This document shows positions 81 through 62,814 of a stretch of DNA of 64,000 nt, piece after piece (positions within the stretch are counted from its first letter, which is position 1; each line of letters begins with the position of its first letter). The notes beneath the pieces were generated by a model. It worked only from the letters and a program-made list of their open reading frames with translations. It did not search any database and was not told the DNA's origin. The position numbers and the translations under genes are program-made. Origin of the DNA: an uncultured Candidatus Saccharibacteria bacterium (lineage in GTDB: Bacteria; Patescibacteriota; Minisyncoccia; Phycocordibacterales; UBA918); NCBI GenBank assembly GCA_964399295.1, contig CAYNQD010000002.1, forward strand, positions 27,859 to 91,858, given 5' to 3'.

Positions 81-122
81 AAAAAGGAGGGGCCGCGCCT
101 TCGGCGCGGCCCCTCCTTTTTA
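81..122. terminator. GC-rich perfect hairpin (stem aaaaaggaggggccgcgcc / ggcgcggcccctccttttt, loop ttcg) flanked by A-run and T-run; bidirectional intrinsic terminator just after the minus-strand recombinase stop
   Basis: Read directly from the sequence at 81-122. Confidence 0.7.
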
Positions 123-9471: not shown

Positions 9472-11424
9472 ATGAATGACAAACCTTATCTGGCCGGACT
9501 AAATCCCGCTCAACACCAAGCAGTTGTTACAACCGACGGCCCGCTTTTGGTTTTGGCTGGAGCTGGTTCCGGTAAAACCAAGGTCATAACGCACCGGATT
9601 GTTCACCTCATACATCAGGGAATAGCCCCTCATAATATTCTAGCAGTCACTTTTACCAACAAAGCCGCCAAAGAAATGCGTGAGCGGGTGGAAGCCTTAA
9701 TAAAAAAATATCCGCCGTCCGAAAGAGCGGCTTTTGACTCACTGCCTACCGTCACTACTTTTCACGCTTTGGGCGTGAGGATTCTTCGCGAGTACCACGA
9801 AATCCTTAATTTACCGCGTCATTTTACCATCTACGACCGCGCCGACAGTCTCAAAACCATAAAATCCGCTCTGGAAAAAGGTGATTATAATCCCAAAGAA
9901 TTTGAACCCCGAAAAATTCTCAGCAAAATTTCTAGGGCAAAAGGCGACGCAGAGACGGTAAGCGAATATAGAGAAGCCGCTAAAAATTTTACCGATCAGG
10001 TAACGGCTACTGTCTGGGGTTTTTATGAAGAAATTTTAAAAAAAGAGCACGCGTTGGATTTTGATGATCTTTTGACCAAGACATTATTTTTATTAAAAAA
10101 TTATCCGCAAGTAAAAAATGAGTTACAAAAAAAATATCAGTACGTTCACGTTGACGAATACCAGGACACCAACGCAGTGCAATTTTCCATTGCCAAAAAT
10201 TTGGTGGGAGAGAAACAAAATATCTGCGTGGTGGGCGACATTGACCAAAATATTTATTCCTGGCGCGGCGCGGACATAAAAAATGTTTTGCAATTTGAAA
10301 GAGAATTTTCCGGGGCCAAGACTATTCTTTTGGAAGAAAATTATCGTTCTACCAAAACCATCATCAACGCTTCCAACGAAATCATAGAAAAAAATAAAAA
10401 CCGCGTGCCCAAAGCCGTCTTTACCAGCAATGAAGAAGGAGAAAAAATAACCTTATATACAGCCATGACAGGGGTGGACGAGGCGGAATATATCGCCATG
10501 ACCGCTGATTCTTTGGTTAAGGGTGGCGTTAATCCCACCGACATCGCCGTACTGTATCGCACCAATTTTCAATCCAGAGCTTTGGAAGAAGCTTTCCTAA
10601 ATTATGGCGTGCCGTACCAACTTCTCGGCACAAAATTTTATGAACGCAAGGAGGTGAAAGATGTTTTATCTTATTTACGTTTGGCGCTAAATCCTGGTAG
10701 CACGGCTGATTTGGTGCGAGTTATAAATGAACCAGCGCGCGGGATTGGCAAAGTGACAATGCTCAAAGTGCTGGAAGGGAGGAGGTCGGAATTGACAGGA
10801 GCCACACTCGAAAAAGTCAGCCGTTTTGACCAGCTGATGTCGGACATTGCCGACGAGGCCCGTACCAAGCCTCTCTCTGAAACTTTAAAATTTATTATCC
10901 AAAGAACCGGTATCGAAACTGAATTAAAAAAGAATGGCACCGAAGACGATCTGTCTCGACTGGAAAACCTGCGGGAACTGGTTACTTTGGGCCAGCGTTA
11001 TGATGATATGGACCCGGAAGCGGCCATTGAGAGCCTACTTGAAACCGCCAGTCTGCAAAGCGATCAGGACGAATTGAAAGACAAAGAGGAATACGACGCC
11101 GTCCGCCTGATGACCATTCACGCCGCCAAAGGTCTGGAATTTGCTTACGTTTTTATTTCCGGTTTGGAGGAAGGTCTGTTTCCACACGAACGTCTGGACG
11201 ACACAGGAATTGACCACGAGGAAGAAAGGCGGCTTTTTTACGTGGCTTTGACCAGAGCCAGCAAAAAACTATTCTTGACTTACGCTCATTTGCGTACTAT
11301 TTATGGCAGTCAGCGGGTTAATGTGCCCTCATCCTTCCTAAACGACATCAGCACGGAACACATAGAAACCGCCAATCCCAAAGGTGGTAGTTCCGGTTAT
11401 GAAACCACCATTTTTCTGGACTAA
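9472..11424 (+). CDS. pcrA: ATP-dependent DNA helicase PcrA/UvrD
   Basis: 650 aa. LNPAQHQAVV..LAGAGSGKTKVITHRI (helicase motif I), DEYQDTN (motif II), and C-terminal motifs V/VI (TIHAAKGLEF, YVALTRA). Confidence 0.9.
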   Translation: MNDKPYLAGLNPAQHQAVVTTDGPLLVLAGAGSGKTKVITHRIVHLIHQGIAPHNILAVTFTNKAAKEMRERVEALIKKYPPSERAAFDSLPTVTTFHALGVRILREYHEILNLPRHFTIYDRADSLKTIKSALEKGDYNPKEFEPRKILSKISRAKGDAETVSEYREAAKNFTDQVTATVWGFYEEILKKEHALDFDDLLTKTLFLLKNYPQVKNELQKKYQYVHVDEYQDTNAVQFSIAKNLVGEKQNICVVGDIDQNIYSWRGADIKNVLQFEREFSGAKTILLEENYRSTKTIINASNEIIEKNKNRVPKAVFTSNEEGEKITLYTAMTGVDEAEYIAMTADSLVKGGVNPTDIAVLYRTNFQSRALEEAFLNYGVPYQLLGTKFYERKEVKDVLSYLRLALNPGSTADLVRVINEPARGIGKVTMLKVLEGRRSELTGATLEKVSRFDQLMSDIADEARTKPLSETLKFIIQRTGIETELKKNGTEDDLSRLENLRELVTLGQRYDDMDPEAAIESLLETASLQSDQDELKDKEEYDAVRLMTIHAAKGLEFAYVFISGLEEGLFPHERLDDTGIDHEEERRLFYVALTRASKKLFLTYAHLRTIYGSQRVNVPSSFLNDISTEHIETANPKGGSSGYETTIFLD

Positions 11425-11426
11425 TA

Positions 11427-12266
11427 ATGTATGTTCAAAATATGAGAAAAAGTCGGAGTGAAATTGATGATAAAGAAAAGTTTGTTCACAAGAAATCCTT
11501 GGGGCAAAACTTTTTGACCAGTGATGTGGTACCAAACTGGATGTGTGAGGCCGGGGAGGTGAGGGCTGGGGATACCGTTTTAGAAATTGGCCCCGGCACC
11601 GGCATGTTGACCAAGGCTATTTTGGCCAGAGGAGCCAGAGTAATCGCCATCGAAGCGGACGAAAGAGCTGTCGAGAGCCTTAATAACACCTTTTCCGACT
11701 TTATTAAAACCAAGCAACTAGTCATTCATCACGGCGACGCCAGAAAAATCACCCCTGAAAATTTAGGCCTAAAAAATCACAGCTTTAAGATTGTCGCTAA
11801 TATTCCTTATTATTTATCAGGTTTTTTACTGCGTTTATCCCTGGAAAACAAAATTCAGCCGCAAAATTTAACCTTCTTAATACAAAAAGAATTGGCCCAC
11901 CGCATTGCCAGAGATAAAAAAGAATCATTGTTGTCATTGTCAGTAAAGGTTTTTGGGCAACCGACCTACGTAAAAACAGTTACCAAAGGGCACTTCAACC
12001 CACAGCCAAAAGTCGATTCAGCGATTTTGCATATAAGTAACATCAACAATAATAATTTTGAAAATCTATCGAAAGAAACTTTCTTTAAAATTATCCATCT
12101 GGGCTTGGGAAATAAGCGCAAACAACTCCTTAGTAACTTAAGTCGTGATTATGACCGCGAAAATTTAACAAAAATTTTCCAACAATTAAACTTGCCGCTC
12201 GACCGCAGAGGAGAAGATTTGTCGCTTCAAGACTGGATACGATTGGTAAAAAACCTGGAAAACTAA
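11427..12266 (+). CDS. rsmA: 16S rRNA (adenine1518/1519-N6)-dimethyltransferase RsmA/KsgA
   Basis: KKSLGQNFL...VLEIGPGTGMLTKAIL...IVANIPYYLS are classic KsgA motifs. Confidence 0.9.
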   Translation: MYVQNMRKSRSEIDDKEKFVHKKSLGQNFLTSDVVPNWMCEAGEVRAGDTVLEIGPGTGMLTKAILARGARVIAIEADERAVESLNNTFSDFIKTKQLVIHHGDARKITPENLGLKNHSFKIVANIPYYLSGFLLRLSLENKIQPQNLTFLIQKELAHRIARDKKESLLSLSVKVFGQPTYVKTVTKGHFNPQPKVDSAILHISNINNNNFENLSKETFFKIIHLGLGNKRKQLLSNLSRDYDRENLTKIFQQLNLPLDRRGEDLSLQDWIRLVKNLEN

Positions 12267-12361: not shown

Positions 12362-13267
12362 ATGACGCAGAAATTTGATTCTAAAATTCTCGGGGCTTTT
12401 CTGATTGGTTTTGCTTTGGTTGCAGGCACGATTGTCATCAACAACCTGAATCGAACAGTTGTAGAATCTACAGACACAGACAGCACCGCTCTGGTGGCTA
12501 TCAATCAGGCTCCGCCACGAGTCTTGATTCCGGTAAAAGATTCAAACAACGACGGCCTTGAGGATTGGCAGGAGGAGTTTGTTAGCGCCAGCAAGATAGT
12601 ATTGTCTACCAGTTCGGAAGAATACACGCCTCCCGATACCGTTACCGGCCAATTGGGTACGGCCCTGATGCACAAGCTCCTATCTTCAAAGGTATATGCT
12701 CCGTTTGGTTCCAGTCCGGATCAAATCGTTGATGATTTGGTAAAAAACCTAAGCGCGCACGGCTCTGATAAAATCTATAACACCAGAGATATCACCATCA
12801 CTGATGACACTTCAAAAGAGGCGATACGTGTTTATGGCAATGCCTTAGCCTTAGCTATTTTAAACAACGGAATTGAGGGTACGGATAGCGAGCTATTCAT
12901 TTTGCAAAGAATCATTCACAATAATGATGCGGAGGGTATAGAAAGACTGGTGTTATTGGCAAAAATGTATCAAGACACCCGTGACGACACTATAAAAATA
13001 CCGGTACCAAGAACTTTCACCAAACAACACCTTGACCTAATCAACGTCTACAACGCTCTTTACGTAGACGTTGATTATATGTCAAAACTAACCGAAGATC
13101 CGGCTTTGTCCTTAATCAGAATTAAACGCTATGAAGACGACGCCAAAGGCTTATCTTTAGCCTTGCAAAATATATACCGTTCATTAGAACCACACACCGA
13201 TGCTTTTTCAATCGACGATCCGGCTGTTTTTTTTGTTAATTTTAGCCCTGATTTTAATAATCAATAA
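12362..13267 (+). CDS. hypothetical N-terminally membrane-anchored/secreted protein (first gene of the T4SS-like cluster)
   Basis: 301 aa. N-terminal TM/signal (ILGAFLIGFALVAGTIVI). A candidate -10 (tataat) lies just upstream at about 12345. Confidence 0.5.
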   Translation: MTQKFDSKILGAFLIGFALVAGTIVINNLNRTVVESTDTDSTALVAINQAPPRVLIPVKDSNNDGLEDWQEEFVSASKIVLSTSSEEYTPPDTVTGQLGTALMHKLLSSKVYAPFGSSPDQIVDDLVKNLSAHGSDKIYNTRDITITDDTSKEAIRVYGNALALAILNNGIEGTDSELFILQRIIHNNDAEGIERLVLLAKMYQDTRDDTIKIPVPRTFTKQHLDLINVYNALYVDVDYMSKLTEDPALSLIRIKRYEDDAKGLSLALQNIYRSLEPHTDAFSIDDPAVFFVNFSPDFNNQ

Positions 13268-13271
13268 AAAT

Positions 13272-14807
13272 ATGAGCACTTTCCATACATTTTTACAAAA
13301 AGGTTTAGTCTTTCTTTTTAGTTTGTGTTTGATGTTTGTTAGCGTTTATGTTCCGCAGCAACACCTTAATAACGTCCCCTCAGCTGAAGCTGGACTTGAC
13401 GCTACAGAACCAACCCAGATTAGAAATGAAATTCAACTTTTAGCCGTAAACGCTTGGACCTACGCGACTTCCATAGCCGCCATTGCTTTGGAATTAAAAG
13501 AATCTTGGCTTGACGGCATTGCCTGGGCGTTTGCTAAGGGCGTTATTGCCACCATGACGCGTAGCATTGTCAGATGGATAAATTCCGGCTTTCAAGGATC
13601 GCCGGCTTTTGTCCAGGATTTGCAAGCGCATTTACTGCGCGTGGGAGATATGATTTTTAATGAATTCGTGCATGAGATTGGCGCGGCCCCTTATGTTTGT
13701 GGACCTTTCCGCTTAAATTTACAAATAGCTTTGAGTACCAGCTACCAACACTACAACCGAGCCGGCTATCCCAGGGGCACTCCGAGGTGTACGATAAGCG
13801 GAGTAATGGCGAACTTGGAAAACTTTGTCAATGGTGCCTTTACTTCAGATGGCTGGGATCAATGGTTTAGAGTCACTACTCAGCCCAATGTCTACACTCC
13901 TTATGGTAGTTTTTTGACACTCCGGGGCGAGGCCGCTCTTAGGATAGGCAGTACCCAGCACAACGCCGGAGCGATTTTGAATTATGGTGATGGCTTTATG
14001 TCAAATGTTGTTTGTAGCACCATATCTGCTGTTGGATTTGATAAAGAACGATGTCTGGTCTCGACTCCTGGACACGTTATTAGTGAAACTTTAACCCACC
14101 ATTTGGGAGCTGGTTTGGAAAGTTGGATCGCGGCTGACGAAATCAATGAGATTATCGGGTCTTTGCTAGGACAATTGGCAAATAGGGCTTTGAGCGGAGC
14201 AGCCGGACTGTTGGGCTTGTCTGGGGGAACTGGTTATACCGATACGAGCTATGCTGGTTTTGATCCTCTTAATCAACGCCCATTCGTGGAACAATTGGTG
14301 TTTGAGCAAGAAGGTACTTCTAGCAGCACTCTTATCGCTGAAGCCACAAGAATGGTGCAGGCCGCTACCGCCATGGAGCAAGAATATCTTGACGTAGCAA
14401 ATGATTATAAAGCAGTGTTAATGTTTAGGAATACACCTGCTTCCATAGCAGCAGCGGCTCATATAACTAATTCCATAGAAAACCCGAATTTCCCTGGATC
14501 ACCAGCTTACAACTTGGCTAGAATAAATGCTCTTGTTGATGGAGTTAATAACGAAACTATCAGTTATGAACATGCTATCCAGGAGTTCAACACTCTTAAT
14601 CTCCATACTTCAAATGACCTCTCCTTAAAGGAAGGTGAGTGGAATCTGCTGCTTAGAGATTTGATATCAGACCAAATAGCCAGAGAAGGAGGTGTCGGTG
14701 CTACATCAAATATAGCGGACCTTAATCAGGTACAGCTGCTTGTCAATAGCGGCAGAAACAGAGAGGCGGTTAAGTTATTTAGCACCTTAATACCTTTCCT
14801 AAACTAA
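13272..14807 (+). CDS. hypothetical large secreted/membrane protein (T4SS-like cluster)
   Basis: 512 aa from the ATG at 13272, in frame with the track ORF. N-terminal hydrophobic signal (LVFLFSLCLMFVSVYV), a second hydrophobic helix, and several Cys. Confidence 0.5.
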   Translation: MSTFHTFLQKGLVFLFSLCLMFVSVYVPQQHLNNVPSAEAGLDATEPTQIRNEIQLLAVNAWTYATSIAAIALELKESWLDGIAWAFAKGVIATMTRSIVRWINSGFQGSPAFVQDLQAHLLRVGDMIFNEFVHEIGAAPYVCGPFRLNLQIALSTSYQHYNRAGYPRGTPRCTISGVMANLENFVNGAFTSDGWDQWFRVTTQPNVYTPYGSFLTLRGEAALRIGSTQHNAGAILNYGDGFMSNVVCSTISAVGFDKERCLVSTPGHVISETLTHHLGAGLESWIAADEINEIIGSLLGQLANRALSGAAGLLGLSGGTGYTDTSYAGFDPLNQRPFVEQLVFEQEGTSSSTLIAEATRMVQAATAMEQEYLDVANDYKAVLMFRNTPASIAAAAHITNSIENPNFPGSPAYNLARINALVDGVNNETISYEHAIQEFNTLNLHTSNDLSLKEGEWNLLLRDLISDQIAREGGVGATSNIADLNQVQLLVNSGRNREAVKLFSTLIPFLN

Positions 14808-14830
14808 CGCAAAATAAAGACTTACCAAAT

Positions 14831-17056
14831 ATGCTTAAAATAATACTAAGAAACAAAACTACATATTCACTACTACTGTCGGTAGCCTGTCTCTTGGTGT
14901 TGTTTATACCCATGCTGGCTTTAGGACAAGCAGACGGTGGTGCTGGAAAAAAAACCGAGGACGATTCCCTGATTCAGAATCTGCTTTGGGGACTTGTGAA
15001 TGGGGTTTTTGGTTTTCTCGTTTGGTTGTCCGGCAAGCTACTGGATACCGCCGTGACAACTTTTGTAATCGGCTTTGGAGAATTGTACAACACCAGTGGC
15101 TTAGGTTTTGCGGTAGACAATCTCTGGCGAGTGGTGCGTGACATCTTTAACCTTACCTTTATATTTGGCCTTGTTTACATCGGATTCAAGATGATTCTAA
15201 ACAGCGGAGACACCAACGCCAAAAGGTTGTTAATTAACATTATTATGGCTGCCCTTTTGGTAAACTTCAGTCTGTTCTTTACCAAGTTTATAATTGAATT
15301 CTCAAACGTGGCCGCCACTCAAGTGGCCAGTGCCTTTGATGCTGGCGGTGGGGATTATCAGGTATCTGGTAAGTTTATGAACGCAATGGGTTTATCCAGT
15401 ATATTTGCCGATGACGGCAGTATGACTAACGCTTTTGGCACCAACACCGGAAATGGCTATACTTATATTTTCGGAACTTTATTCTTATTTATTGTGACGG
15501 CCTTTGCCTTTTTTGCCGGCGGTATACTTCTGATGATTAGATTTGCCGTTCTAAATCTATACATGATTTTGTCTCCGATTATGTTTTTAGGTTGGGTATT
15601 TCCTTCTCTGGCCAGCTATTCGGCTACGTATTGGCGCAGTTTCCTAGGCCGTGCTTTCTATGCGCCCGCTTATCTACTGATGCTGTATTTCTGTTTCGTT
15701 GTTTTCAATGAATTTGCTGCTGTAACTAGGTCTGGCAGTCTTTCCAAAGTCCTAACCGATGCCAATAGCGCGCAGTCAGATTTTGCCTCTACCATTCCTT
15801 ATTTTGCTATCATGATTATATTCCTTCTGGCTTCAATTGTGATTGGCCAGAAAATGGGTGCTGAAGGTGGAGCTTACATGGTATCAATGGGTAAAGGCGC
15901 GGCCAGCCGTGGCGGAAGAATGTTAAAGCGAACTGCCGGTGCAGCTACTTTTGGCCTAACAGCCAAAGCTGGACGACAAGTGATTGGAGGCACAGCCAAT
16001 AAGATAGCTGAAAGTAAAGGTCTTCGAGAATGGGCTGCAAAAAGTAAAGCTGGAGAGACACTTCTTAAAGGTACTCGTAGGGTAGCAGATTCTTCTTTTG
16101 ACGCTAGAAAGATTGGTGGCATGGGAACCGCTCTTGGAATTGGTGAGGGAGCCAAGAGTGGTTACGCTACTCAAATTAAAGAGCAGAATAAGGCCGATGA
16201 AGAATTCTCCAATTCACTAACCAGAAAAACTAGGGGCTACGATGGCAAACTTACCGAAGACGCAGCCAAAGCGGTAGATAAAGCCTTAACTGAAGATAAA
16301 GAATTGCAAGGACTAAGAGATTTGCAGGGAACTGCCGATAAGAATATAGAAAACCTCACCACCAAGAAAACAGACACGGAGAAAGAAAAGGCGGAAAAAG
16401 AGACTGCGATAGCAGAAGCTAAGGAAGCTGGGAATACAGAAGCGCAAGAAAATCTTGAAAAAGAACTGTCTCATCTTGATAAAACCCTAACCAATCTAGA
16501 CAAAGACATAGCTAACGCTAATCAAATAAAAGACACTACCGCGAAAAATATTGAAAATCAAGAAAAGAAAATCAGTACCAAAGCCGAGGCGGACTACAAA
16601 TACGCCGATCGAATCGCTTTCCGAGAGCATCGTCGTGAGATAGCTGAATCCTGGAGAAATAGAGGAACGCTTGGAGCCGGCATTGCTGGAGGAGCAGCTG
16701 GAGTAGGAGCAGCCGGTTTGATTGCCAGCACCGCCGGATTAGCCGCTTTACCACTGGCTTTGACAATACTTTCCGGCGCAGCCGTTGGAGGAGCAGCTGG
16801 AGTAGGAGCAGCCAGGGGCTACGCCGAAAGAAACGACCGAAGCGCCATGAACCTCATGCAAAGATACGGACGACAAGGAGAAGATATCGCCAAAGTAGAC
16901 AAGGCCAACAATGACTTAAAAGTCATCCATGACAGGCTAAAAGCTATAGGAGGAGAAGGGGACAAAAAACAAACTTCATCTGACTCCGACAAGCAAACTC
17001 CACCCCCGCCACCACCAAATCCAGGTACAGGTACGGCCTCTACACCAAACCCATAA
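14831..17056 (+). CDS. VirB6/TrbL-like polytopic membrane protein with extended C-terminus
   Basis: 741 aa. About 8 predicted TM helices in the first 340 aa. Then a coiled-coil region (aa 440-570), a Gly/Ala-rich hydrophobic stretch (GIAGGAAGVGAAGLIASTAGLAALPLALTILSGAAVGGAAGVGAA) and a C-terminal PPPPPPNPGTGT tail. Sits three genes upstream of the VirB4-like gene. Confidence 0.45.
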   Translation: MLKIILRNKTTYSLLLSVACLLVLFIPMLALGQADGGAGKKTEDDSLIQNLLWGLVNGVFGFLVWLSGKLLDTAVTTFVIGFGELYNTSGLGFAVDNLWRVVRDIFNLTFIFGLVYIGFKMILNSGDTNAKRLLINIIMAALLVNFSLFFTKFIIEFSNVAATQVASAFDAGGGDYQVSGKFMNAMGLSSIFADDGSMTNAFGTNTGNGYTYIFGTLFLFIVTAFAFFAGGILLMIRFAVLNLYMILSPIMFLGWVFPSLASYSATYWRSFLGRAFYAPAYLLMLYFCFVVFNEFAAVTRSGSLSKVLTDANSAQSDFASTIPYFAIMIIFLLASIVIGQKMGAEGGAYMVSMGKGAASRGGRMLKRTAGAATFGLTAKAGRQVIGGTANKIAESKGLREWAAKSKAGETLLKGTRRVADSSFDARKIGGMGTALGIGEGAKSGYATQIKEQNKADEEFSNSLTRKTRGYDGKLTEDAAKAVDKALTEDKELQGLRDLQGTADKNIENLTTKKTDTEKEKAEKETAIAEAKEAGNTEAQENLEKELSHLDKTLTNLDKDIANANQIKDTTAKNIENQEKKISTKAEADYKYADRIAFREHRREIAESWRNRGTLGAGIAGGAAGVGAAGLIASTAGLAALPLALTILSGAAVGGAAGVGAARGYAERNDRSAMNLMQRYGRQGEDIAKVDKANNDLKVIHDRLKAIGGEGDKKQTSSDSDKQTPPPPPPNPGTGTASTPNP

Positions 17057-17065
17057 TAGATAAAT

Positions 17066-17575
17066 ATGCCAAATCAACAATTACAAGAAAGAATACAAGA
17101 ACTTGAACCTCTCTATCGAGAATACATCTTGAGTGATGATATCGCGGAAATTGCCAAGGAATTTTCGGAGGTGCACGGGTTTGATGAGACAAACGCCAAC
17201 CTGCTTGAGAATGGAATATTCTTATTTATGCTGTTTTTCATAAATAAGAAAACTTTAGTGGACTTTATTGTCAAGAATTGTAGATTAGAACAACACGAAG
17301 CGGCGGTTTTGGTGGAGGCTATCATCATGTCTGTACCAGACAATATTCGCGCCATGCAAACAAAGACCAGTCTGGTGATTTTCTCAGAAACTGATCCCAA
17401 AGATACTACCGAAAAGGAGATACTAGAGACCGAAACCTCAATCGAGTACTTAAATTCCATACGCACCATGCCGGCAGATAAACAGCAAAATAATGAAACT
17501 ACTCACACCAGCACTCAATCCGCCATCTTGAATGACAGACCACCATTCTCAAACACATCACAGCCAAAACAGTAA
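17066..17575 (+). CDS. hypothetical small acidic protein (T4SS-like cluster)
   Basis: 169 aa, no TM, acidic. Confidence 0.4.
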   Translation: MPNQQLQERIQELEPLYREYILSDDIAEIAKEFSEVHGFDETNANLLENGIFLFMLFFINKKTLVDFIVKNCRLEQHEAAVLVEAIIMSVPDNIRAMQTKTSLVIFSETDPKDTTEKEILETETSIEYLNSIRTMPADKQQNNETTHTSTQSAILNDRPPFSNTSQPKQ

Positions 17576-17621
17576 TCTTATTGTTTGCAACAAATAGTTG
17601 CCTATACACAAAATAATAATC

Positions 17622-17650
17622 ACTTTTCGTGCTAAAAGTGTATAATGTAT
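17622..17650 (+). promoter_or_regulatory. candidate extended -10 promoter (tgtataatg) for the VirB3-like/VirB4 genes
   Basis: TGnTATAAT at 17638-17646, about 20 nt upstream of the ATG at 17668. Confidence 0.35.
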
Positions 17651-17667
17651 TTTGTACGCAGACAAAT

Positions 17668-18078
17668 ATGAGATTTGAAGTTCCACAGTTTATTGATATT
17701 GAAGATAAGATTTTTGGGCCTCTTACTTGGCGTCAATTCCTGTACCTAGGAGGCGGAGTAGGTATGGGCGTGGTTTTATTTTTCATAAATAAATTATTGT
17801 TTCTTTTTGTTGGACTGCCGTTGGCTATTTTGGCCGGCGCGCTGGCTTTCTACCCTGTAAACAACCGGCCGTTCTCTTTTTTTCTGGAAGCGATATTCAA
17901 TTACCTAGGCAGCGATAAGCTGTACCTATGGAAACAAAAAGATGAAATTATCCATAAAAACCTTTTTACCCCCAGCACGGTAGGCGGAAATCCTCCAGAA
18001 AGCCCCAGCCGAACAATCAAAAACACCGCCTCGCTCGCTCGTCGCCTGGAATTAGAAGCTATTCAAAAAAAAGAATAA
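17668..18078 (+). CDS. PrgI/VirB3-like small membrane protein
   Basis: 136 aa from the ATG at 17668. Short cytoplasmic N-terminus then two hydrophobic helices (LYLGGGVGMGVVLFFINKLLFLFVGLPLAILAGALAFY). Directly upstream of the VirB4-like gene, as for VirB3-VirB4 pairs. Confidence 0.5.
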   Translation: MRFEVPQFIDIEDKIFGPLTWRQFLYLGGGVGMGVVLFFINKLLFLFVGLPLAILAGALAFYPVNNRPFSFFLEAIFNYLGSDKLYLWKQKDEIIHKNLFTPSTVGGNPPESPSRTIKNTASLARRLELEAIQKKE

Positions 18079-18079
18079 T

Positions 18080-18724
18080 ATGCCAAAATCAACCGCTGCC
18101 ACCCAACAATTTGTCGGTATTCGTGACATTAAAGATGGAATAGTAATTCTGAAATCAGGGCAAATGTGTACCATTCTTTTGGCTTCTTCCGTCAACTTCG
18201 CGCTCAAATCAATTGATGAACAGCAGGCGATTTTGCAGCAATTCCAGACTTTTCTTAACACTCTGGATTTTTCATTGCAGATTTACATTCAATCCCGACG
18301 CTTAAATATCGAGCCCTACATTGAGCTTCTAAAGACCAGAGAGGCCCACCAAGACAATGACCTTATGAGGATTCAGCTTCGCGAATACATTGAATTCATT
18401 CAAACGTTTACCAATGAGGTCGATATCATGAGCAAGAACTTTTTTGTGGTGGTCCCGTATTCTCCGATACCAGTTAATATCACCAAAGGAATAACGTCAC
18501 TGTTTTCCACCGCTCCCAAAACAAACACGCCAACGGAAATGCGTTTTGAAGAGCAGCGCACTCAGCTGGAGCAGAGAGTGGCCGTGGTCGAACAAGGATT
18601 GGGGCGGGTGGGGGTACGCACCACGCCGCTGAAGAACGATGATTTGGTGGAATTATTTTATCATACCTACAACCCGATTGACCCCGCAGGCTCAGCTCCC
18701 ACCTTTAACAAAGCGGACTTCTAA
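18080..18724 (+). CDS. VirB4-like ATPase, N-terminal domain ORF
   Basis: 214 aa. FVGIRDIKDGIVILKSGQMCTILLASSVNFALKSIDEQQAILQQFQTFLNTLDFSLQIYIQS matches the conserved N-terminal domain of Gram-positive-type VirB4/TraC/PrgJ-family ATPases. Ends 10 nt before the next ORF. Confidence 0.65.
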   Translation: MPKSTAATQQFVGIRDIKDGIVILKSGQMCTILLASSVNFALKSIDEQQAILQQFQTFLNTLDFSLQIYIQSRRLNIEPYIELLKTREAHQDNDLMRIQLREYIEFIQTFTNEVDIMSKNFFVVVPYSPIPVNITKGITSLFSTAPKTNTPTEMRFEEQRTQLEQRVAVVEQGLGRVGVRTTPLKNDDLVELFYHTYNPIDPAGSAPTFNKADF

Positions 18725-18734
18725 TACCAAAACC

Positions 18735-20525
18735 ATGAGCATATTTGACCAATTCAAACCGAATAACAACCAAACTCCAAAGATCAGCGATCAGCTCTTG
18801 ACTTTGGTCGACGTGGTGGCTCCTTCCGCCGTCAACATCACTCCACGAGGAATAAATTTAAGCGGGGTTGAGGCTAGAGTACTCTACGCTGTATCTTATC
18901 CTCACTATTTGAATGCCAGCTGGATGGAACCGGTCTTAAACATAGACAAGGAAATTGACGTTTCCATATACATTCACCCCATCGACACTGCTGAGAGCTT
19001 GAAAAAATTTCAAAAAAAAGTAGCTGAGGTGCAAAGCCAGATCAACATAAAAGCTGAGAAAGGCGAGGTTCGTGACCCGCAACTGGAAGCAGCCTACCGC
19101 AACCTGGAAGAACTGCGCGACCGACTACAACAAGCGGAAGAAAAACTTTTTAACGTCGGCTTTTACATTGCCATTTATGGTAATGATGAAAAAACTCTAA
19201 ATAAAGCTGAAAATGATATCAAGGGTATCTTGGACTCCAGACTGATTTACCTTAAGCCGGCTTTGTTTCAACAAGAGCCGGGTATGCAAAGTATTTTCCC
19301 CACGGCTACAGATAAGCTCTTGGTTCACAGCAAATTCAACTCCTCACCGCTATCAAGCTTCTTTCCTTTTACTTCTTTTGACCTCACTTCCGATACCGGT
19401 ATTCTTTATGGTATCAACCGCCACAATTCTTCCTTGGTTTTATTTGATCGTTTTTCTTTGACCAACTACAACTCAGTTACCTTCGCCACTTCCGGTGCTG
19501 GAAAATCTTACGCTCTGAAGCTCGAGATTTTGCGTTCGCTGATGTTTGGTACGGAAGTAATCGTACTTGATCCAGAACGAGAATATGAATATTTGGCCGA
19601 AGCTACCGGTGGACGTTTCTTTAATATTTCTCTGTCTTCAGATCACCACATCAATCCCTTTGACTTGCCACCGCCACAACCAGATGAAGACCCGAGAGAT
19701 GTGCTTCGGACTCATATTATTGAATTGATTGGTTTATTTAGACTGATGCTTGGGGGATTGGCGCCGGAAGAAGAGACTATTCTCGATCTCGCCATTCAGG
19801 AAACTTACGCCTTGCGTGACATCACCGGCGACGCTGATTTTTCAGAACAAGAGCCGCCGCTACTTTCAGACTTTGAGATGGTACTGGCCGGTATGGACGG
19901 CAGCAATTCACTGATTACCCGCCTGCAAAAGTACACTTCCGGTACCTGGTCTGGCTTTATGAACAAGCCCACCAACGTCGATATCAATCAAAAATTCGTG
20001 GTTTTCTCTTTGCGCGACATGGAAGACGAGCTAAAGACCATCGCCATGTACATCATCACCAACTTCATTTGGGGTTCTGTGCGCCGACGCATGACCAAAA
20101 GACTGTTAGTCATTGATGAGGCTTGGTGGATGATGAAATCAGAAGATACGGCTTCATTTTTATTCAGTCTAGCCAAGCGCGGTCGAAAATATTACTTGGG
20201 CATAGCCACCATCACTCAAGACGTGGACGATTTCTTACGCTCTCCCTACGGTGTACCAATGATTACCAACTCCTCAATTCAATTCCTAATGAAACAATCC
20301 GCCACCGCCATTGATAATATTCAAAAAACCTTCAACCTCACCGATGAAGAAAAGTTTTTGCTGCTGGAATCAAACGTAGGGGAGGGGATATTTTTTGCCG
20401 GCCTAAAACACGTAGCCGTAAAAGTAATCGCTTCCTACACTGAAGACCAAATCATCACCTCCGATCCATCACAACTTCTGCAAATCAAGAAAGCCAGAGA
20501 AGAATTGCAACTGTCCCGCTCATAA
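18735..20525 (+). CDS. VirB4/TrbE/CagE-like T4SS ATPase, ATPase domain ORF
   Basis: 596 aa from the ATG at 18735. Walker A FATSGAGKSYALK, Walker B LLVIDEAWWMM, and DPEREYEYL/GIATITQD motifs typical of VirB4-family ATPases. Confidence 0.75.
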   Translation: MSIFDQFKPNNNQTPKISDQLLTLVDVVAPSAVNITPRGINLSGVEARVLYAVSYPHYLNASWMEPVLNIDKEIDVSIYIHPIDTAESLKKFQKKVAEVQSQINIKAEKGEVRDPQLEAAYRNLEELRDRLQQAEEKLFNVGFYIAIYGNDEKTLNKAENDIKGILDSRLIYLKPALFQQEPGMQSIFPTATDKLLVHSKFNSSPLSSFFPFTSFDLTSDTGILYGINRHNSSLVLFDRFSLTNYNSVTFATSGAGKSYALKLEILRSLMFGTEVIVLDPEREYEYLAEATGGRFFNISLSSDHHINPFDLPPPQPDEDPRDVLRTHIIELIGLFRLMLGGLAPEEETILDLAIQETYALRDITGDADFSEQEPPLLSDFEMVLAGMDGSNSLITRLQKYTSGTWSGFMNKPTNVDINQKFVVFSLRDMEDELKTIAMYIITNFIWGSVRRRMTKRLLVIDEAWWMMKSEDTASFLFSLAKRGRKYYLGIATITQDVDDFLRSPYGVPMITNSSIQFLMKQSATAIDNIQKTFNLTDEEKFLLLESNVGEGIFFAGLKHVAVKVIASYTEDQIITSDPSQLLQIKKAREELQLSRS

Positions 20526-20538
20526 ACACCTATAATGT

Positions 20539-21375
20539 ATGGCTACTTATCCAAATTCAAATATACGCAACGTTAAAAAAGTTGACCGCCAAAGAATCAA
20601 TGATGATTGGGAATATTTGGAGGAGCCGGCTTTATCCCACAATCCCAGCACGGATGAACTGTTTAACAAGACCTACAAAAGCAGTGGTTTGCAAGCCACC
20701 ACCTCTTCCAATATCAGAAATCCTAAAAAAATTAACTCGGAGGCAGGAAACGATGCTACAACAAACACCTACAAAGCAAAATCATCTTACGGTCAAACAT
20801 ATAATGATTTTGATAGTTATGACGACGATTATGGACCGAAAGCAAAAGATAAAAAAGTAAAGATACCTGGCGGAAGAACTTCACCAATTCTTAGACTGAA
20901 AGCCAATATAGAAGCTTCCCGGATTATATTTTGGGTGGGTCAAAAATATATAATGCTCCAACTTCCTTTCGCGATTTTATCGATAATCGGTCTGGGAGCA
21001 TCACTTTACCTGTCGGGAGATTTTAGTAATTCCGGCAATTCCACGAGTACTGGTTTGGTTGATAGTGCCGTGAGCGCTGTGGTTGGTGCCACCGACATCG
21101 TCGTTAGGGGAGTAGCCAATTTCTTTGGAGCTGGTTATTTAACTTTTGCGCTATTTGCCATTCCTCACATGTTTGTTCTCTCCCTAGGAATTTTTGTCCT
21201 TATGACTGTTTATATTCAGTTTACAATGAAATCAATAAAACCCCTATCCGGCGACCACGCCAGCGCAAAGATAGGAACTTTCCTCCTAGCGATACTAGGC
21301 TTCGCCATTCCCATATTAAATTTATTTCCCATTATTTTATTCTGGATATTCACAGTTAGGAAATACCCAAAATAG
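20539..21375 (+). CDS. hypothetical membrane protein (disordered N-terminus, four C-terminal TM helices)
   Basis: 278 aa. The hydrophobic C-terminal half was read directly. Confidence 0.45.
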   Translation: MATYPNSNIRNVKKVDRQRINDDWEYLEEPALSHNPSTDELFNKTYKSSGLQATTSSNIRNPKKINSEAGNDATTNTYKAKSSYGQTYNDFDSYDDDYGPKAKDKKVKIPGGRTSPILRLKANIEASRIIFWVGQKYIMLQLPFAILSIIGLGASLYLSGDFSNSGNSTSTGLVDSAVSAVVGATDIVVRGVANFFGAGYLTFALFAIPHMFVLSLGIFVLMTVYIQFTMKSIKPLSGDHASAKIGTFLLAILGFAIPILNLFPIILFWIFTVRKYPK

Positions 21376-21422
21376 GTGGTTAAGGTGGTTTTTTTGGATT
21401 TTAGTTTGTTATTATAATAACC

Positions 21423-22379
21423 ATGAGATACTTTATATTAATTTTAGTCGCATTAATGCCTTTAGATTTTTCTAGTGCCCAGATTAGTTCTGAGCCCGGA
21501 CAAATGGGAGTGAGTATAGTTTTGGAAAACGACAATATTAAACCCTTCTCCGCCAACACCGCTTCTTTGGACAATTACTCTCTATCACTTCAAGTTACCA
21601 ACATCAGCTGGAAAATTGACGGCCGAACAATCCCTGAAGCCCAAAATCAAAGGTCTGTTGAATTCACTTCTAAAGACGTCGGTCAGACTACCACTATTGA
21701 AGTGACAGTTGAAACTTTTGAAAAACTCAACTTCTCAGCCAAAAGGATCGTTACACCCATCTATTTGGACATAATATTTGAACCCCAAACCAAAACCCCA
21801 AGTTTTTACAAAGGTCGAGCATTGCCTAGTATTTTTAGCACCGTAAATTTAACCGCCTTGGTCAACGGCACTCCAGACAATGCTAATAATTACATTTACA
21901 ACTGGTCACTAAATGACACCAATATCACCGGCGGTGCTTTGCGAGGAAAGTATAAAGTATCAACCGAAGTACCGGCCGGCTACCAAAACGTCATTGTCCT
22001 GTCTGTCAGCACTCTTGATGGCATACCAGTCGCCAGTCGCAGCTTGGCTCTTAGTTCCGTGGAGCCAAAATTATTATTTTATGAAACCAACACTCTGCAC
22101 GGAATCAAAAACATCCCCATCAGAGATTCCCTAAACCTAATCGGCAACAGCGTTAGCGTCAAAGCTGAGCCTTATTACATAGATATAAACACCTACAATA
22201 AGCCCGGGCTTTTGGAGTGGAAAGTTGATGGCATCAGAAGCCCGAGCAGCGGAAACAATCCTTACGAAGTAACGTTGTCTAAGCAAGGACTAAACGGAGT
22301 ATCTAATGTTAATTTTCACGTCCGAAATTTAAACAACTTTATACAAGGAACCCAAGGTAGCTTTAAGGTAAATTTTTAA
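21423..22379 (+). CDS. hypothetical secreted protein
   Basis: 318 aa. Signal peptide MRYFILILVALMPLDFSSAQ. Beta-rich, with two internally similar segments. Confidence 0.45.
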   Translation: MRYFILILVALMPLDFSSAQISSEPGQMGVSIVLENDNIKPFSANTASLDNYSLSLQVTNISWKIDGRTIPEAQNQRSVEFTSKDVGQTTTIEVTVETFEKLNFSAKRIVTPIYLDIIFEPQTKTPSFYKGRALPSIFSTVNLTALVNGTPDNANNYIYNWSLNDTNITGGALRGKYKVSTEVPAGYQNVIVLSVSTLDGIPVASRSLALSSVEPKLLFYETNTLHGIKNIPIRDSLNLIGNSVSVKAEPYYIDINTYNKPGLLEWKVDGIRSPSSGNNPYEVTLSKQGLNGVSNVNFHVRNLNNFIQGTQGSFKVNF

Positions 22380-22385
22380 AAATAT

Positions 22386-23564
22386 ATGAATAAGCCAATT
22401 TTTATCATTATCGGAGCAATCATTATTTTTATATTGGTTTTGGTTTGGGCGTATTTAATGTTTTTTGGCACCCCCAAAAACATGCAGGATATTTTTGCTG
22501 ATTTAAATTTTCAAGAAAACTTAGAGGATGTCTCTATTAATGTTGTTACTGAGGATACTGTCGTTAATGTAAACAGGCCAGCCCTACGCCAACTAACCAC
22601 CAGACTGGTAGCGGGCTTTCGTGAAATAGACGCACCACCAACCGCCGATTTACCAACAATATACTACACAGAAATGGGAACCGGACATATTTACGCCATC
22701 AATCTTGAGTCTGGCGAAGAAACGAGAATATCAGGTACCACGGTTGTCGGTGTCAACAGCGCTTCCATTTCACCAAAAGGTGATTACGTGGCTTACGGCA
22801 TTGCCAATAGCAGCAAAAACATTAAGCTACTACTTGGAGAAATTAGCACCAGCAGTGATTTGGTGGCGGAAGAAATCAGCACTACTATTGATAAATTTTG
22901 GATCAATGACAACGGTAATGAATTGCTTTACACCACCAGGGAAGAAATTGGTTTGGTGGCATATTCATACAACCTAGCCAATTCCACCAAGAGAAATGTC
23001 TTTTCATTACCTTATCACGAAGCGTTGATACAGTGGGGAAGCACGGCCACGGCAGCGCATTATGTTTATCCAAAGCCAGCTTATTTATTTGAGGGTTATT
23101 TATCCGAAATAACCGGCAATAAAATTAAGCGTTTGCCGGTTGATGGCTACGGATTTTCCGGTTTGGCCAACAAAGATATCGTGGCGTACAGCACTTTGGA
23201 CAGACAGGATGTTAAGAGCTACATCTACAACAAAACCAACAACACCCACAACCCATTCCCTCTACAAATTAATTTTATGCCAGAAAAGTGTATTATCTCT
23301 AAAAATAACAACAACCTAATCTGCGCCTACGACACCACCGCCAAAATGGCTGAATTCCCCGACAGCTGGTATCAGGGGGTGACTAGTTTTAAAGATTCGT
23401 TGTGGCTGGTTTCTGGAGATGCTCTGTCGGCCCAATTCCTAGTGGACACTTTCACCGCCAGCAATCGCGAGATTGATATTACCGATTTAAGCATTGGCAG
23501 CAGCGAACGAGCGGTTTATTTTATAAACAAAAACGATAACACTCTTTGGATGTATGAATTATAA
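22386..23564 (+). CDS. hypothetical secreted/signal-anchored protein
   Basis: 392 aa. N-terminal TM IFIIIGAIIIFILVLVWAYLMFF. Confidence 0.45.
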   Translation: MNKPIFIIIGAIIIFILVLVWAYLMFFGTPKNMQDIFADLNFQENLEDVSINVVTEDTVVNVNRPALRQLTTRLVAGFREIDAPPTADLPTIYYTEMGTGHIYAINLESGEETRISGTTVVGVNSASISPKGDYVAYGIANSSKNIKLLLGEISTSSDLVAEEISTTIDKFWINDNGNELLYTTREEIGLVAYSYNLANSTKRNVFSLPYHEALIQWGSTATAAHYVYPKPAYLFEGYLSEITGNKIKRLPVDGYGFSGLANKDIVAYSTLDRQDVKSYIYNKTNNTHNPFPLQINFMPEKCIISKNNNNLICAYDTTAKMAEFPDSWYQGVTSFKDSLWLVSGDALSAQFLVDTFTASNREIDITDLSIGSSERAVYFINKNDNTLWMYEL

Positions 23565-24261
23565 AACTTTACTACTATTTATAATTTTAGTCGCTCCGCT
23601 GTCGGCTTTGGCTCAGGGTTATGTGTCACTAGTTTCTATTCCTGGAGTTAGCGATCCGACAGGTGGGGGTTTTAACGACTACATAAACGCCCTCTACGTG
23701 CTGTCTATCAGTATTGCCGCCTTATTGGCTGTTATCAAGATAATCATCGCCGGCGTAAAGTGGATGTTGTCTGATGTCGTGACCAGCAAGCAAGAAGCTA
23801 AAAGTGACATCTGGGGAGCCACCATCGGCTTACTAGTCGTTATCTCGGCGGTTTTGGTACTAAATGTAATCAACCCACAGCTAATAGAGTCAGATATCGT
23901 ATTTACCAAGCCACACGAATTCCAATCACAGTCACCTACATTTAGCAAAACTCGGCCTGCTCTGAGCCCTGGTGATACAGAGACAGTTATGAAACTCGAA
24001 GACCATCAGAAGTGTGTACATGATATACAGGGAGAATGGTACGTAGAAACAGATGGTCTTAATAATTACCAATATTGGTGTATTAAAAAAGCCAATAAAG
24101 CTTTCTTGAACCCTGAGCAGTTTGCTTGCAACGCCACAACTCAGACCTGTGACTCTAACGACAAGTTTGCCTGTGAAAGTAATTTCAACGGTATATGGGA
24201 ATATCCTTATATAACTGATATGGGAACTGCACAATACTATAGGGCTAAGTGTGTTTATTAA
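23554..24261 (+). CDS. VirB2/TrbC-topology pilin-like protein with cysteine-rich C-terminal domain
   Basis: 235 aa. Signal peptide (..PLSALAQG) then two hydrophobic helices separated by a charged loop (..LLAVIKIIIAGVKWMLSDVVTSKQEAKSDIWGATIGLLVVISAVLVLNVINP), which is the classic T4SS pilin topology. C-terminal about 110 aa contains 8 Cys. Confidence 0.45.
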   Translation: MNYKTLLLFIILVAPLSALAQGYVSLVSIPGVSDPTGGGFNDYINALYVLSISIAALLAVIKIIIAGVKWMLSDVVTSKQEAKSDIWGATIGLLVVISAVLVLNVINPQLIESDIVFTKPHEFQSQSPTFSKTRPALSPGDTETVMKLEDHQKCVHDIQGEWYVETDGLNNYQYWCIKKANKAFLNPEQFACNATTQTCDSNDKFACESNFNGIWEYPYITDMGTAQYYRAKCVY

Positions 24262-24278: not shown

Positions 24279-24317
24279 ACCAAAAGCCCCGCGCCTTAGG
24301 CGCGGGGCTTTTGGTGT
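24279..24317. terminator. bidirectional GC-rich hairpin terminator (caccaaaagccccgcgcc-ttag-gcgcggggcttttggtg)
   Basis: Lies between convergent stops of the pilin-like gene and yidC. Confidence 0.7.
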
Positions 24318-24352: not shown

Positions 24353-25087
24353 CTAACGATGATGTTTTTTGATGTGTAGTTCTTGCAAGATGGCCACGAT
24401 ATTACTGACAAAAAAGTAAAGGGCGATGGCGGCGGAAATGAAATAAGAAACAAAGAAAATTATCACCGGCATAACATAACGCATTTGCAATTGCATGTTA
24501 CGCATAAAGTCTTCCTTTAAGTCCGGAGCCTTATTTGGATCTCTGGGCGGTAAAGCCGGCATAGCGAGCTTTACCTGATAATACTGAGTCACTCCAGCCA
24601 ACAGCGCCAAAAAAACACTCTTGCCGGAAATATCAATCAAACCAAGAAAATCCATACTCACCATACCAGGTGCGGCCAAGAATGAGTACAAGAGGGCAGT
24701 GTTGATTTCCGGCAAAGCCACACCGCCGCCACTATAAACCGAAAAGTACAGCGCGATGATGATTGGTATTTGCAACAACATCAAAAATATAGTGGAAAAA
24801 GGCTTGATGCCGGATTCGCGATAAAGCTGCATCATTGCTAAGGCTTGTTGTTCGCGGTTGTCTTTGTGGGTTTCTTTTATTTCTTTTAGCTTTGGCTCGA
24901 TCTCACGCATCACACGCTGCGTGCGTGCGGACTTTATGGAAAGAGGGAGCAATATCAGCTTCAATACCACCACCATGGCAATGATAGCCAGACCAACATC
25001 TCCACCAGGAATAACTTCGATAAAAAATATCAACCCGTTATAAACCGGGTCGAAAAAAAATGTATGCCAAATATAATTCATGTCCAC
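24353..25087 (-). CDS. yidC: membrane protein insertase YidC (short form)
   Basis: 244 aa, 5 TM, conserved YidC/Oxa1 core. Canonical position downstream of rnpA. Confidence 0.8.
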   Translation of the reverse strand: MDMNYIWHTFFFDPVYNGLIFFIEVIPGGDVGLAIIAMVVVLKLILLPLSIKSARTQRVMREIEPKLKEIKETHKDNREQQALAMMQLYRESGIKPFSTIFLMLLQIPIIIALYFSVYSGGGVALPEINTALLYSFLAAPGMVSMDFLGLIDISGKSVFLALLAGVTQYYQVKLAMPALPPRDPNKAPDLKEDFMRNMQLQMRYVMPVIIFFVSYFISAAIALYFFVSNIVAILQELHIKKHHR

Positions 25088-25097: not shown

Positions 25098-25421
25098 TTA
25101 TTTTAATATCAGTCCAATTTCTTGTTCAAGAACAGCTAATAATTCTCTTTTGGTTAAATTTTTAATGTTGGGTTTGGCAATAACAATATAAACACCGGTT
25201 GTCTCCCCAGTCTTCAAACGACGCACCACCTCGTAAATACGTCTTTTTAAGCGATTTCTGTCGTACGCCTTTTTATAAACCTTTTTTCCCACCACCACCG
25301 CGCACAAAAACTGATCGTTTGGCGTAAATATCGTTGTGGTATAAGGATTATTTATTCTCTTGCCTTGTTTATAAAACTTGGAAAATAAAGAGGAGTTTAG
25401 ACGCTGCGCTTTTTTAAACAT
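25098..25421 (-). CDS. rnpA: ribonuclease P protein component
   Basis: 107 aa, basic, LNSSLFSKFYKQGKRINNPYTT...VGKKVYKKAYDRNRLKRRIYE is an RnpA-like pattern. Lies between rpmH and yidC. Confidence 0.8.
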   Translation of the reverse strand: MFKKAQRLNSSLFSKFYKQGKRINNPYTTTIFTPNDQFLCAVVVGKKVYKKAYDRNRLKRRIYEVVRRLKTGETTGVYIVIAKPNIKNLTKRELLAVLEQEIGLILK

Positions 25422-25504: not shown

Positions 25505-25654
25505 TTATTGGGCTTTTTTTACCGTCAATTGCGCTCGTCCTTTGCGTCGTCTGGACAATAGGACCTTGGCTCCGGAAGGAGTAGCTGAGCGCACCAAAAA
25601 ACCGTGGGTAGTCGCTCTTTTTCTCTTGCTTGGTTGATAAGTTCTTTTACTCAT
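25505..25654 (-). CDS. rpmH: 50S ribosomal protein L34
   Basis: Manual translation of the minus strand gives [49 protein letters not shown] (49 aa), a canonical L34. It is below the ORF-track size cutoff. Confidence 0.85.
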
Positions 25655-25835: not shown

Positions 25836-25855
25836 TTATGCACAAGTTATGCACA
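25836..25855 (+). promoter_or_regulatory. two direct TTATGCACA DnaA-box-like 9-mers (25836-25844, 25847-25855) upstream of dnaA
   Basis: One mismatch from the TTATCCACA consensus, 11-bp phasing. Followed by a tataat -10 at 25936-25941. Confidence 0.5.
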
Positions 25856-25964
25856 GTTGCGTTTTTTGATTTTTAAAAAAACCATACTTTTGGCAGTTTT
25901 TTAGAAAAAAATTTTACAGCTTCCAGAATGCGGGTATAATTCCTTGTATCTCTCTTTCATTGTT

Positions 25965-27350: not shown

Positions 27351-27679
27351 TATGCTCACATGAGTTATAAACAAAAAACCAACTCTAAGTTGGTTTTTTG
27401 TTTATAACTCTTAGTAAACTATGAATAAGGGTCTTAAGAAATTGTGGGTAAATGGTAGTATAATGCGTATAAGTATCGGTACAGAAACCCAGTTACCCAC
27501 ATTACTTGATTTAAAAAGCAAAGATTATAAACTATCCACAACCTATACTTTTATTCACACCACTAACCCCAAACCAATTGTTGATTACTTTCCCAAAAAG
27601 ACAGTTCAAAATACAACATATTTTTGAGATATGCACACTTCCACACCCCTAATAATAAAGAGTAAAATGTGATTTAAAT
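27351..27679. promoter_or_regulatory. probable oriC: dnaA-dnaN intergenic region with a 21-bp perfect palindrome (27364-27410), at least four DnaA-box-like 9-mers (27443-27451 rc, 27493-27501, 27532-27540, 27551-27559) and AT-rich tracts
   Basis: Motifs read directly. Classic oriC position between dnaA and dnaN. Confidence 0.6.
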
Positions 27680-58901: not shown

Positions 58902-58904
58902 AAT

Positions 58905-59237: not shown

Positions 59238-59241
59238 CTCC

Positions 59242-59847: not shown

Positions 59848-59943
59848 GTTGTTGGGTTTTTTGTGTTCAAGGCAGCGTATAATAGGTGTATGAATGTTTT
59901 TTCCGTGTTAACTAAAATCTTTCCGCCGCCAAGTTTTTTGTCG

Positions 59944-60984: not shown

Positions 60985-60986
60985 TT

Positions 60987-62047: not shown

Positions 62048-62049
62048 TT

Positions 62050-62748: not shown

Positions 62749-62814
62749 ATAATTTGGACTTGGTTAGAATAGCAAAAAAAAGAGAAAGAGGGAATAGTGT
62801 GTTAAAATTATCCC

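Follow-up and report, generated by a model that had tools for sequence, protein, structure and literature searches.

Is a type IV secretion system (T4SS)-like gene cluster that lies beside a chromosomal replication origin a mobile element, or does it belong to the cell that carries it? The question is raised by contig CAYNQD010000002.1 (assembly GCA_964399295.1), of which a stretch of 64 kb, hereafter the window, was analysed. An earlier note on this DNA had described eleven co-directional genes between rsmA and rpmH-rnpA-yidC-dnaA. It had suggested a host-resident apparatus of the kind proposed for episymbiotic bacteria and had argued against a recent conjugative or integrative element. Eleven + strand open reading frames (ORFs) could indeed be identified at 12362-24261, with intergenic gaps of -11 to 92 bp, and the flanking genes are as described. 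We conclude that the cluster is very probably a chromosomal, vertically inherited T4SS of the Patescibacteria clade, derived from monoderm conjugation machinery (MPF-FATA) and present here in its Paceibacteria version. The host-resident reading is thus supported, and it coincides with the published picture (Quinonero-Coronel et al., 2025, Microb Genom, PMC12102498; Wang et al., 2023, Cell, PMC10633639). The genes of the cluster are as follows.

12362-13267, + strand: g1, N-terminal membrane anchor and extracytoplasmic four-helix bundle, 301 aa
13272-14807, + strand: g2, signal or anchor, conserved Cys-containing N-module and variable helical C-terminal domain, 511 aa
14831-17056, + strand: g3, extended VirB6/TrbL-like polytopic membrane protein (profile evidence), 741 aa
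17066-17575, + strand: g4, one hydrophobic segment, filler between VirB6 and PrgI, 169 aa
17629-18078, + strand: g5, PrgI/VirB3-like two-helix membrane protein (PF12666)
18080-18724, + strand: g6, TrsD/TraD-like, VirB4 N-terminal domain as its own polypeptide (NCBIfam), 214 aa
18735-20525, + strand: g7, VirB4-family ATPase of the monoderm (MPF-FATA-related) type (NCBIfam/Pfam), 596 aa
20539-21375, + strand: g8, low-complexity N-terminal half and 3-4 C-terminal transmembrane (TM) helices, 278 aa
21423-22379, + strand: g9, secreted, tandem Ig-like beta domains, signal-like N-terminus, 318 aa
22386-23564, + strand: g10, membrane-anchored (TM residues 1-31) extracytoplasmic TolB-like beta-propeller, 392 aa
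23554-24261, + strand: g11, VirB2/TrbC-like T4SS pilin (PF18895) with a Cys-rich C-terminal extension, 235 aa

The ATPase g7 scores above the cut-off of the NCBIfam model NF045971 (VirB4-like conjugal transfer ATPase, CD1110 family; 352.8 bits, cut-off 325). It also matches PF19044 (P-loop_TraG, 94 bits), AAA_10 and DUF87, and has lower scores against F-type TraC and VirB4_CagE. Of the curated families, CD1110, the MPF-FATA prototype, fits best. Both motifs reported in the earlier note, Walker A FATSGAGKS (19482-19508) and Walker B VIDEAWW (20109-20129), were located and are intact. Among the best 120 of at least 8000 matches, g7 is 84-94% identical to Paceibacteria proteins, and all source-named entries among these 120 are from Paceibacteria/Parcubacteria.

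The earlier note had placed VirB4 at 18080-20525. The VirB4-family similarity of this region stands, but it is divided between two genes, g6 and g7, and not carried by one. The g6 protein matches NF041427 (TrsD, 1.5e-6) and the N-terminal 100-140 residues of the VirB4_plasma (2.2e-9) and CD1110 (9e-6) models, and its homologues have a precomputed PF26593 TraC-like annotation. Its stop codon TAA (18722-18724) is followed after 10 bp by the ATG of g7 at 18735. Of 81 relatives, 79 likewise have the TrsD-like gene as an ORF of its own (206-226 aa), and VirB4 is therefore naturally split, with no frameshift. A frameshifted or pseudogenised VirB4 was considered and rejected on the same count and on the proper ATG of g7.

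A comparison of synteny with related genomes had been proposed in the earlier note. The set used here comprises 83 loci (~80 species), 80 of them from a scan of a genome collection in which 588 relatives were found and three from assemblies. Each of the 83 loci has the T4SS block at this same site in the chromosome. The gene order UvrD-KsgA-g1-g2-g3-(g4)-PrgI-TrsD-VirB4-(g8)-g9-{g10, pilin}-YidC-RnpA-DnaA-DnaN-PBP1 recurs almost without exception. All 80 loci from the genome collection are from metagenome-assembled genomes (MAGs) of Patescibacteria. Close homologues are all found in Paceibacteria/Parcubacteria MAGs (Nomurabacteria, Kaiserbacteria, 'Paceibacterota'), some of which carry a wrong 'uncultured Saccharibacteria' label from an automated pipeline.

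No protein of the neighbourhood is better conserved than VirB4. Its median identity to the window protein across the 83 loci is 71%, compared with 65% for UvrD, 60% for DnaA, 54% for TrsD, 49% for PrgI, 48% for YidC and 40% for DnaN. That VirB4 ranks above DnaA, UvrD and DnaN indicates strong purifying selection. Such conservation is consistent with a core function that is inherited vertically, and not with an integrative and conjugative element (ICE).

Further T4SS components could be recognised around the motor. The PrgI/VirB3-like two-helix protein predicted in the earlier note, g5, scores 41.7 bits against PF12666 PrgI (gathering score 27). Its true start is likely the ATG at 17668, giving a product of 136 aa, and PrgI is found in 80 of the 83 loci with lengths clustering at 132-149 aa. 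The proposed VirB6/TrbL-like nature of g3 is borne out by its family profile and its homologues, but not by a Pfam match of its own, as a scan of the window protein alone gave none. A profile built from 29 homologues (A1) has as its top PDB match TrwI, the VirB6 of R388 (7o3v_F, E=0.007, 247 residues). PF04610 TrbL is matched by 8 of these 29 homologues (best 2e-8). A precomputed PF19590 TrbL_3 match exists for a protein of 741 aa encoded at the same position, on a contig with an identical g2. The g3 protein has at least six hydrophobic segments, then a C-terminal coiled-coil/hydrophilic region and a Pro-rich tail. We accept it as a putative 'extended VirB6', with the caveat that the window sequence is below curated thresholds.

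The pilin-like protein with VirB2/TrbC topology is g11, which scores 25.6 bits against PF18895 T4SS_pilin (E=1.4e-5), 1 bit below the gathering score of 26.6, and 1e-3 against the Mbov_0395 pilin-like family known from mycoplasma ICEs. An alignment of the family (A7) shows a signal peptide, a YxPLxxIPG motif and two TM helices, typical of VirB2/TrbC pilins. The core is conserved across relatives. The C-terminal extension is hypervariable, often Cys-rich, and 60-250 residues long; this domain is almost wholly different from species to species. Most relatives have one pilin per locus and about eight loci have two. The order of the pilin and beta-propeller genes flips among sub-lineages.

The remaining large proteins had been described as lacking recognisable domains. 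For g9 and g10 this does not hold when profiles are used. The g9 profile (A3) matches the Ig-like domains of T4 Hoc (3shs_A, E=3.8e-5) and, at E=0.005, an LPXTG surface protein. The gene is present in 71 of the 83 loci, each time just after VirB4/g8, and its product is a candidate wall-spanning or adhesive component. The g10 protein has a conserved Cys pair, its profile (A4) matches many TolB chains (E=8e-4 upward), and it matches TIGR02800 weakly (0.011). It is present in 72 of the 83 loci.

For g4 and g8 no family match was obtained in the Pfam and NCBIfam scans. Both evolve fast. With tblastn, a homologue of g4 is found in 6 of the 83 loci, and relatives hold an ORF of 109-166 aa at its position; g8 is detected in 20 of the 83. 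That g8 could be a second pilin was rejected, since the cluster pilin hidden Markov model gives no match to it.

The predicted fold of g1 is a 4-helix bundle and not NTF2, and its membership in the apparatus is inferred from synteny. The start of g2 at 13272 is fixed by an identical 511-aa protein in NCBI (P0121). Its N-terminal module has the conserved motifs WINSGFxGxPxF and ADEINEI. The AlphaFold model of g2 is poor (pLDDT 61.6, pTM 0.38), and neither Foldseek against PDB (none below E=1) nor a profile search against PDB sequences gave a match. In paralogues from a close relative (P0122-P0124) the N-module is fused to right-handed beta-helix domains, and g2 looks like a family with polymorphic C-terminal domains. 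In Nomurabacteria CP060227/JACKGB01, a Pel9A-like beta-helix is fused to g2, giving a protein of 783 aa. The same Nomurabacteria have two more paralogues with the g2 N-module (873-880 aa), one with a beta-helix, and one of the two is located at a separate site (L086:8001-10643).

Judging by homology, the parts might work together as follows. The VirB6-like g3 and the PrgI/VirB3-like g5 would form the membrane translocon platform, onto which the two-piece VirB4, made up of the TrsD-like N-domain g6 and the ATPase g7, would dock. VirB4 could then power the extraction of the Sec-inserted pilin g11 and its polymerisation into a pilus or wall conduit. The parts outside the membrane, namely g9, g10 and the variable Cys-rich tail of the pilin, probably lend the structure stability and may serve wall crossing and/or host contact. 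As no relaxase or coupling protein goes with the cluster, the substrate is probably proteins or other host-exchanged material and not relaxase-piloted DNA. The position near the origin may provide a high gene dosage.

Several points weigh against a vertically inherited Patescibacteria-clade T4SS of this composition. Type IV coupling protein (T4CP) homologues occur in most Patescibacteria, usually far from virB4 (PMC12102498). A VirD4 homologue may therefore exist elsewhere in the genome, in which case DNA transfer may be conceivable. The VirB6 and pilin assignments of the window proteins themselves are under curated thresholds and are thus putative. No cluster ORF matches a VirB8-like (NTF2-fold) protein or PrgL in Pfam or NCBIfam, and a VirB1-like component was not found inside the cluster. 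The orthologous, origin-proximal T4SS genes of Southlakia epibionticum ML1 (SEML1_0006-0019) are essential for epibiotic growth by transposon sequencing (Wang et al., 2023, PMC10633639), and this evidence comes from one Saccharibacterium, not from a Paceibacterium. Finally, the closest complete relative has the block in two parts. There M23/LysM-UvrD-KsgA-g1-g2 adjoins EF-G/EF-Tu/S10 (L085:8001-11265), and the T4SS core from g3 to the pilin, with YidC and dnaA, lies elsewhere (L001:6309-15541). Since g1 and g2 go with ksgA in this relative, the apparatus may be one of 9 genes; the upstream boundary of the cluster may be soft, and g1 and g2 may not be structural parts of the machine.

With regard to the VirB1-like function, a LysM and M23 peptidase is encoded three genes upstream of g1 (8051-9037, - strand). 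In at least 12 related loci with a flank long enough to include it, the LysM/M23 gene likewise lies upstream of UvrD. This peptidase could be a VirB1-type wall hydrolase, and such a hydrolase is associated with virB4 in Paceibacteria (PMC12102498).

The locus could instead be an ICE or a recent remnant of one beside the origin, with its relaxase, coupling protein and integrase outside the cluster or decayed. The VirB4 family to which g7 belongs was typed on ICE and plasmid conjugation (CD1110 of CTn2), and a tyrosine recombinase is present at 120-1037 (- strand). This recombinase, the sole integrase in the window, is however Xer-like and lies 11 kb off, behind PNPase, ComM, the M23/LysM peptidase, UvrD and KsgA. 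The earlier note had seen neither relaxase nor VirD4 nor integrase. The last was overlooked, though it is not directly beside the cluster. For the first two the statement holds in the ORFs scanned: no Pfam domain of a relaxase or of VirD4/TcpA was found there, the scan having covered all but seven ORFs (127-201 aa) towards the right end of the window (58518-63833). No att-like direct repeats flank the cluster, and only chance-level matches of 16-31 nt were seen, inside coding regions. The GC content of the cluster (0.430) is like that of its flanks (0.442 and 0.421), as is GC at third codon positions. Position and gene order are identical in the 83 loci, and the divergence of VirB4 tracks that of housekeeping genes. 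A recent ICE is excluded by the synteny, the VirB4 conservation and the flank-like composition, and the mobile alternative as a whole is extremely improbable.

Two other alternatives accept a resident machine and give it a different task. In the archaeal Ced system, DNA is taken up with the VirB4/HerA-like CedB and pilin-like proteins, and a Ced-like system could import host DNA as a nucleotide source. Patescibacteria, which lack nucleotide biosynthesis (PMC10633639), would have a use for this. The cluster likewise combines a pilin-like protein and polytopic membrane partners with the lack of a relaxase or T4CP, and its VirB4 clade is nested in MPF-FATA, which includes archaeal systems (PMC12102498). 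The match of g7 to the CedB model NF041017 is weak, though (41 bits, 9.5e-11). It falls far under the cut-off of 700, while the CD1110 family is above its own, and no CedA-like proteins were found among the matches, in which no dedicated CedA model was used. In Southlakia, transformation proceeds via the type IV pilus (T4P) and ComEC, and comEC is dispensable while the T4SS is essential (PMC12857230); this dispensability argues against the acquisition of nucleotides by the known DNA-uptake route, but it does not bear on T4SS-mediated import. We consider Ced-like import very unlikely. Nor do we put much trust in a machine for adhesion, in which VirB4 would build a VirB2-type pilus for attachment to the host and nothing would be translocated. 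The hypervariable C-terminal domain of the pilin, the conserved Ig-repeat and beta-propeller surface proteins beside it and the lack of a coupling ATPase in the scanned ORFs would all suit such a pilus. Yet the window has separate T4P genes, the T4P is the demonstrated adhesion organelle in Saccharibacteria (PMC12857230), and the channel components VirB6 and VirB3 have been retained under selection, which makes pure adhesion highly improbable.

The T4P genes in the window encode a PilB-type T2SSE ATPase with an MshEN domain (36589-38358, - strand) and PilM (59863-60984, + strand); with these and the T4SS genes, the cell has both surface machines. An ORF of 598 aa upstream of the cluster (4353-6149, + strand) has a long low-complexity/disordered N-terminus, one TM segment at ~385-405 and a C-terminal extracytoplasmic domain. 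It is kept beside DksA/ComM in two related loci (L035 and L085) and neither Pfam nor NCBIfam nor the PDB sequences gave a match to it. The idea that it is a hidden coupling ATPase was rejected, its GK[ST] motif, the only unexplained one in the window, being a chance match in the low-complexity region.

The Patescibacteria-clade T4SS could also have been specialised further in this lineage. It is possible, if rather unlikely, that the Paceibacteria version is a distinct sub-architecture in which an extracellular kit forms a host-recognition or contact module on a VirB4 motor that is more tightly constrained than DnaA, with a role in uptake or effector delivery. The kit would consist of g10, g9 and the single pilin with its hypervariable Cys-rich head, and possibly also of g1, as a sensor-like four-helix bundle, and the g2 family with its swappable C-terminal domains. 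The beta-helix versions of g2 are polysaccharide-binding/lyase-like, and the g2 family would be a candidate for polymorphic substrates or surface tips. If this were true, the cell would require the system to obtain material from its host or to deliver effectors to it.

A substantial part of bacterial diversity falls within the Patescibacteria, and these live on other microbes. The T4SS is among the few conserved envelope machines that they have kept and is essential in the one species tested, which makes it a prime candidate for the host interface. For a Paceibacteria genome, the window bears out what has been published, and by itself it opens no new question. The locus of 9-11 genes is cleanly delimited and well conserved, and could guide experiments.

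The neighbourhood of the cluster contains the following features.

9472-11424: UvrD/PcrA, upstream flank
11427-12266: KsgA/RsmA, upstream flank, adjoins g1
24293-24308, + strand: terminator-like hairpin after g11 (consensus scan, weak evidence)
24353-25087, - strand, opposite to the cluster: YidC, downstream flank
25098-25421, - strand, opposite to the cluster: RnpA, downstream flank
25505-25654, - strand: L34/rpmH, downstream flank
25944-27350: DnaA, beyond rpmH
27443-27559: probable oriC with four DnaA-box-like 9-mers, in the AT-rich dnaA-dnaN spacer
27680-28777: DnaN, beyond DnaA

Two further DnaA-box-like 9-mers are found at 25836-25855, and the window as a whole has 30 such matches against 16.2 expected. 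The GC content drops to 0.34 at 27200-27599, in the dnaA-dnaN spacer, and the cumulative GC skew has its minimum at ~27.6-28 kb. Taken together, the DnaA boxes and the skew minimum place the end of the T4SS cluster ~3 kb from the probable oriC. In Paceibacteria the neighbourhood of virB4 has been reported to include dnaA, dnaN, rnpA, ksgA and rpmH, and the authors suggested an origin-linked dosage effect (PMC12102498).

The T4SS operon is on the + strand and the inferred oriC lies to its right, so that it is transcribed head-on to the leftward replication fork. The large upstream ORFs from 1532 onwards are also on the + strand and head-on, except for the M23/LysM peptidase (-), and only yidC-rnpA-rpmH are co-oriented with this fork. 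Related loci keep the head-on arrangement, which is unusual in an operon that is so highly conserved and probably essential. No Shine-Dalgarno sequence could be recognised in the 20 nt upstream of the start for any of the cluster genes (0/11). An Rfam scan of the window at gathering thresholds found four tRNAs only, none inside the T4SS cluster.

Elsewhere in the window, two + strand ORFs have no Pfam match and weak NCBIfam similarities. The ORF at 43936-45438 is apolipoprotein N-acyltransferase (Lnt)-like (1.2e-16, below cut-off). The ORF at 41748-42452 resembles DNA polymerase III delta (holA, 1.1e-13) and looks truncated.

Systems of this type are known. A survey of 3,035 Patescibacteria genomes found VirB4 in 2,417, nearly all in one clade nested in MPF-FATA, with TrsD, PrgI/VirB3, VirB6 and VirB2-like pilins as neighbours and with relaxases almost absent (Quinonero-Coronel et al., 2025, PMC12102498). 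A review from 2025 describes the patescibacterial systems as a new branch of the T4SS superfamily (PMC12857230). The system, its MPF-FATA ancestry, the lack of a relaxase and the position beside dnaA were thus all published in 2025 (PMC12102498). Because that study and the one on Southlakia (PMC10633639) precede ours, both the finding and its interpretation reproduce published knowledge. The additions made here are modest: the fold-level assignment of a 4-helix bundle to g1, of Ig repeats to g9 and of a beta-propeller to g10, the variable C-terminal domain of the pilin, the separability of g1/g2 and the conservation of VirB4 above DnaA.

Among monoderm MPF-FATA systems (CTn2 CD1110; PrgH-PrgI-PrgJ of pCF10; TrsC-TrsD-TrsE of pGO1/pSK41), PrgI is shared with the window, and pGO1 likewise has a separate TrsD ahead of VirB4. 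Neither these conjugative systems nor the window cluster have outer-membrane core components. The window cluster differs from them in having no in-cluster relaxase, T4CP, VirB1-type hydrolase or VirB8-like protein, and in being chromosomal and vertically inherited instead of mobile. It also has a VirB2-like pilin, unlike the Gram-positive systems (PMC12102498). Protein export without a co-encoded coupling protein is known from Bordetella Ptl and Brucella VirB (PMC12102498; PMC12857230), but these are diderm MPF-T systems with VirB7/9/10 cores, unlike the system described here.

The T4SS of Southlakia is closer. It is origin-proximal, has the core order VirB6 ... PrgI - TrsD-like - VirB4 and PF18895 pilins, and neither a relaxase nor a coupling protein can be recognised in its cluster, a lack on which its authors also remarked (PMC10633639). 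Six short pilins in an array, a lysozyme/peptidase downstream of virB4 and an NTF2-like protein are found in Southlakia only. The window cluster instead has one pilin with a long variable tail, the Ig-repeat protein and the beta-propeller, and no in-cluster hydrolase. The Patescibacteria-clade T4SS in its Paceibacteria arrangement (PMC12102498) shares with the window the set of components, the relaxase- and T4CP-free vicinity and the gene neighbourhood, and nothing essential differs between the two.

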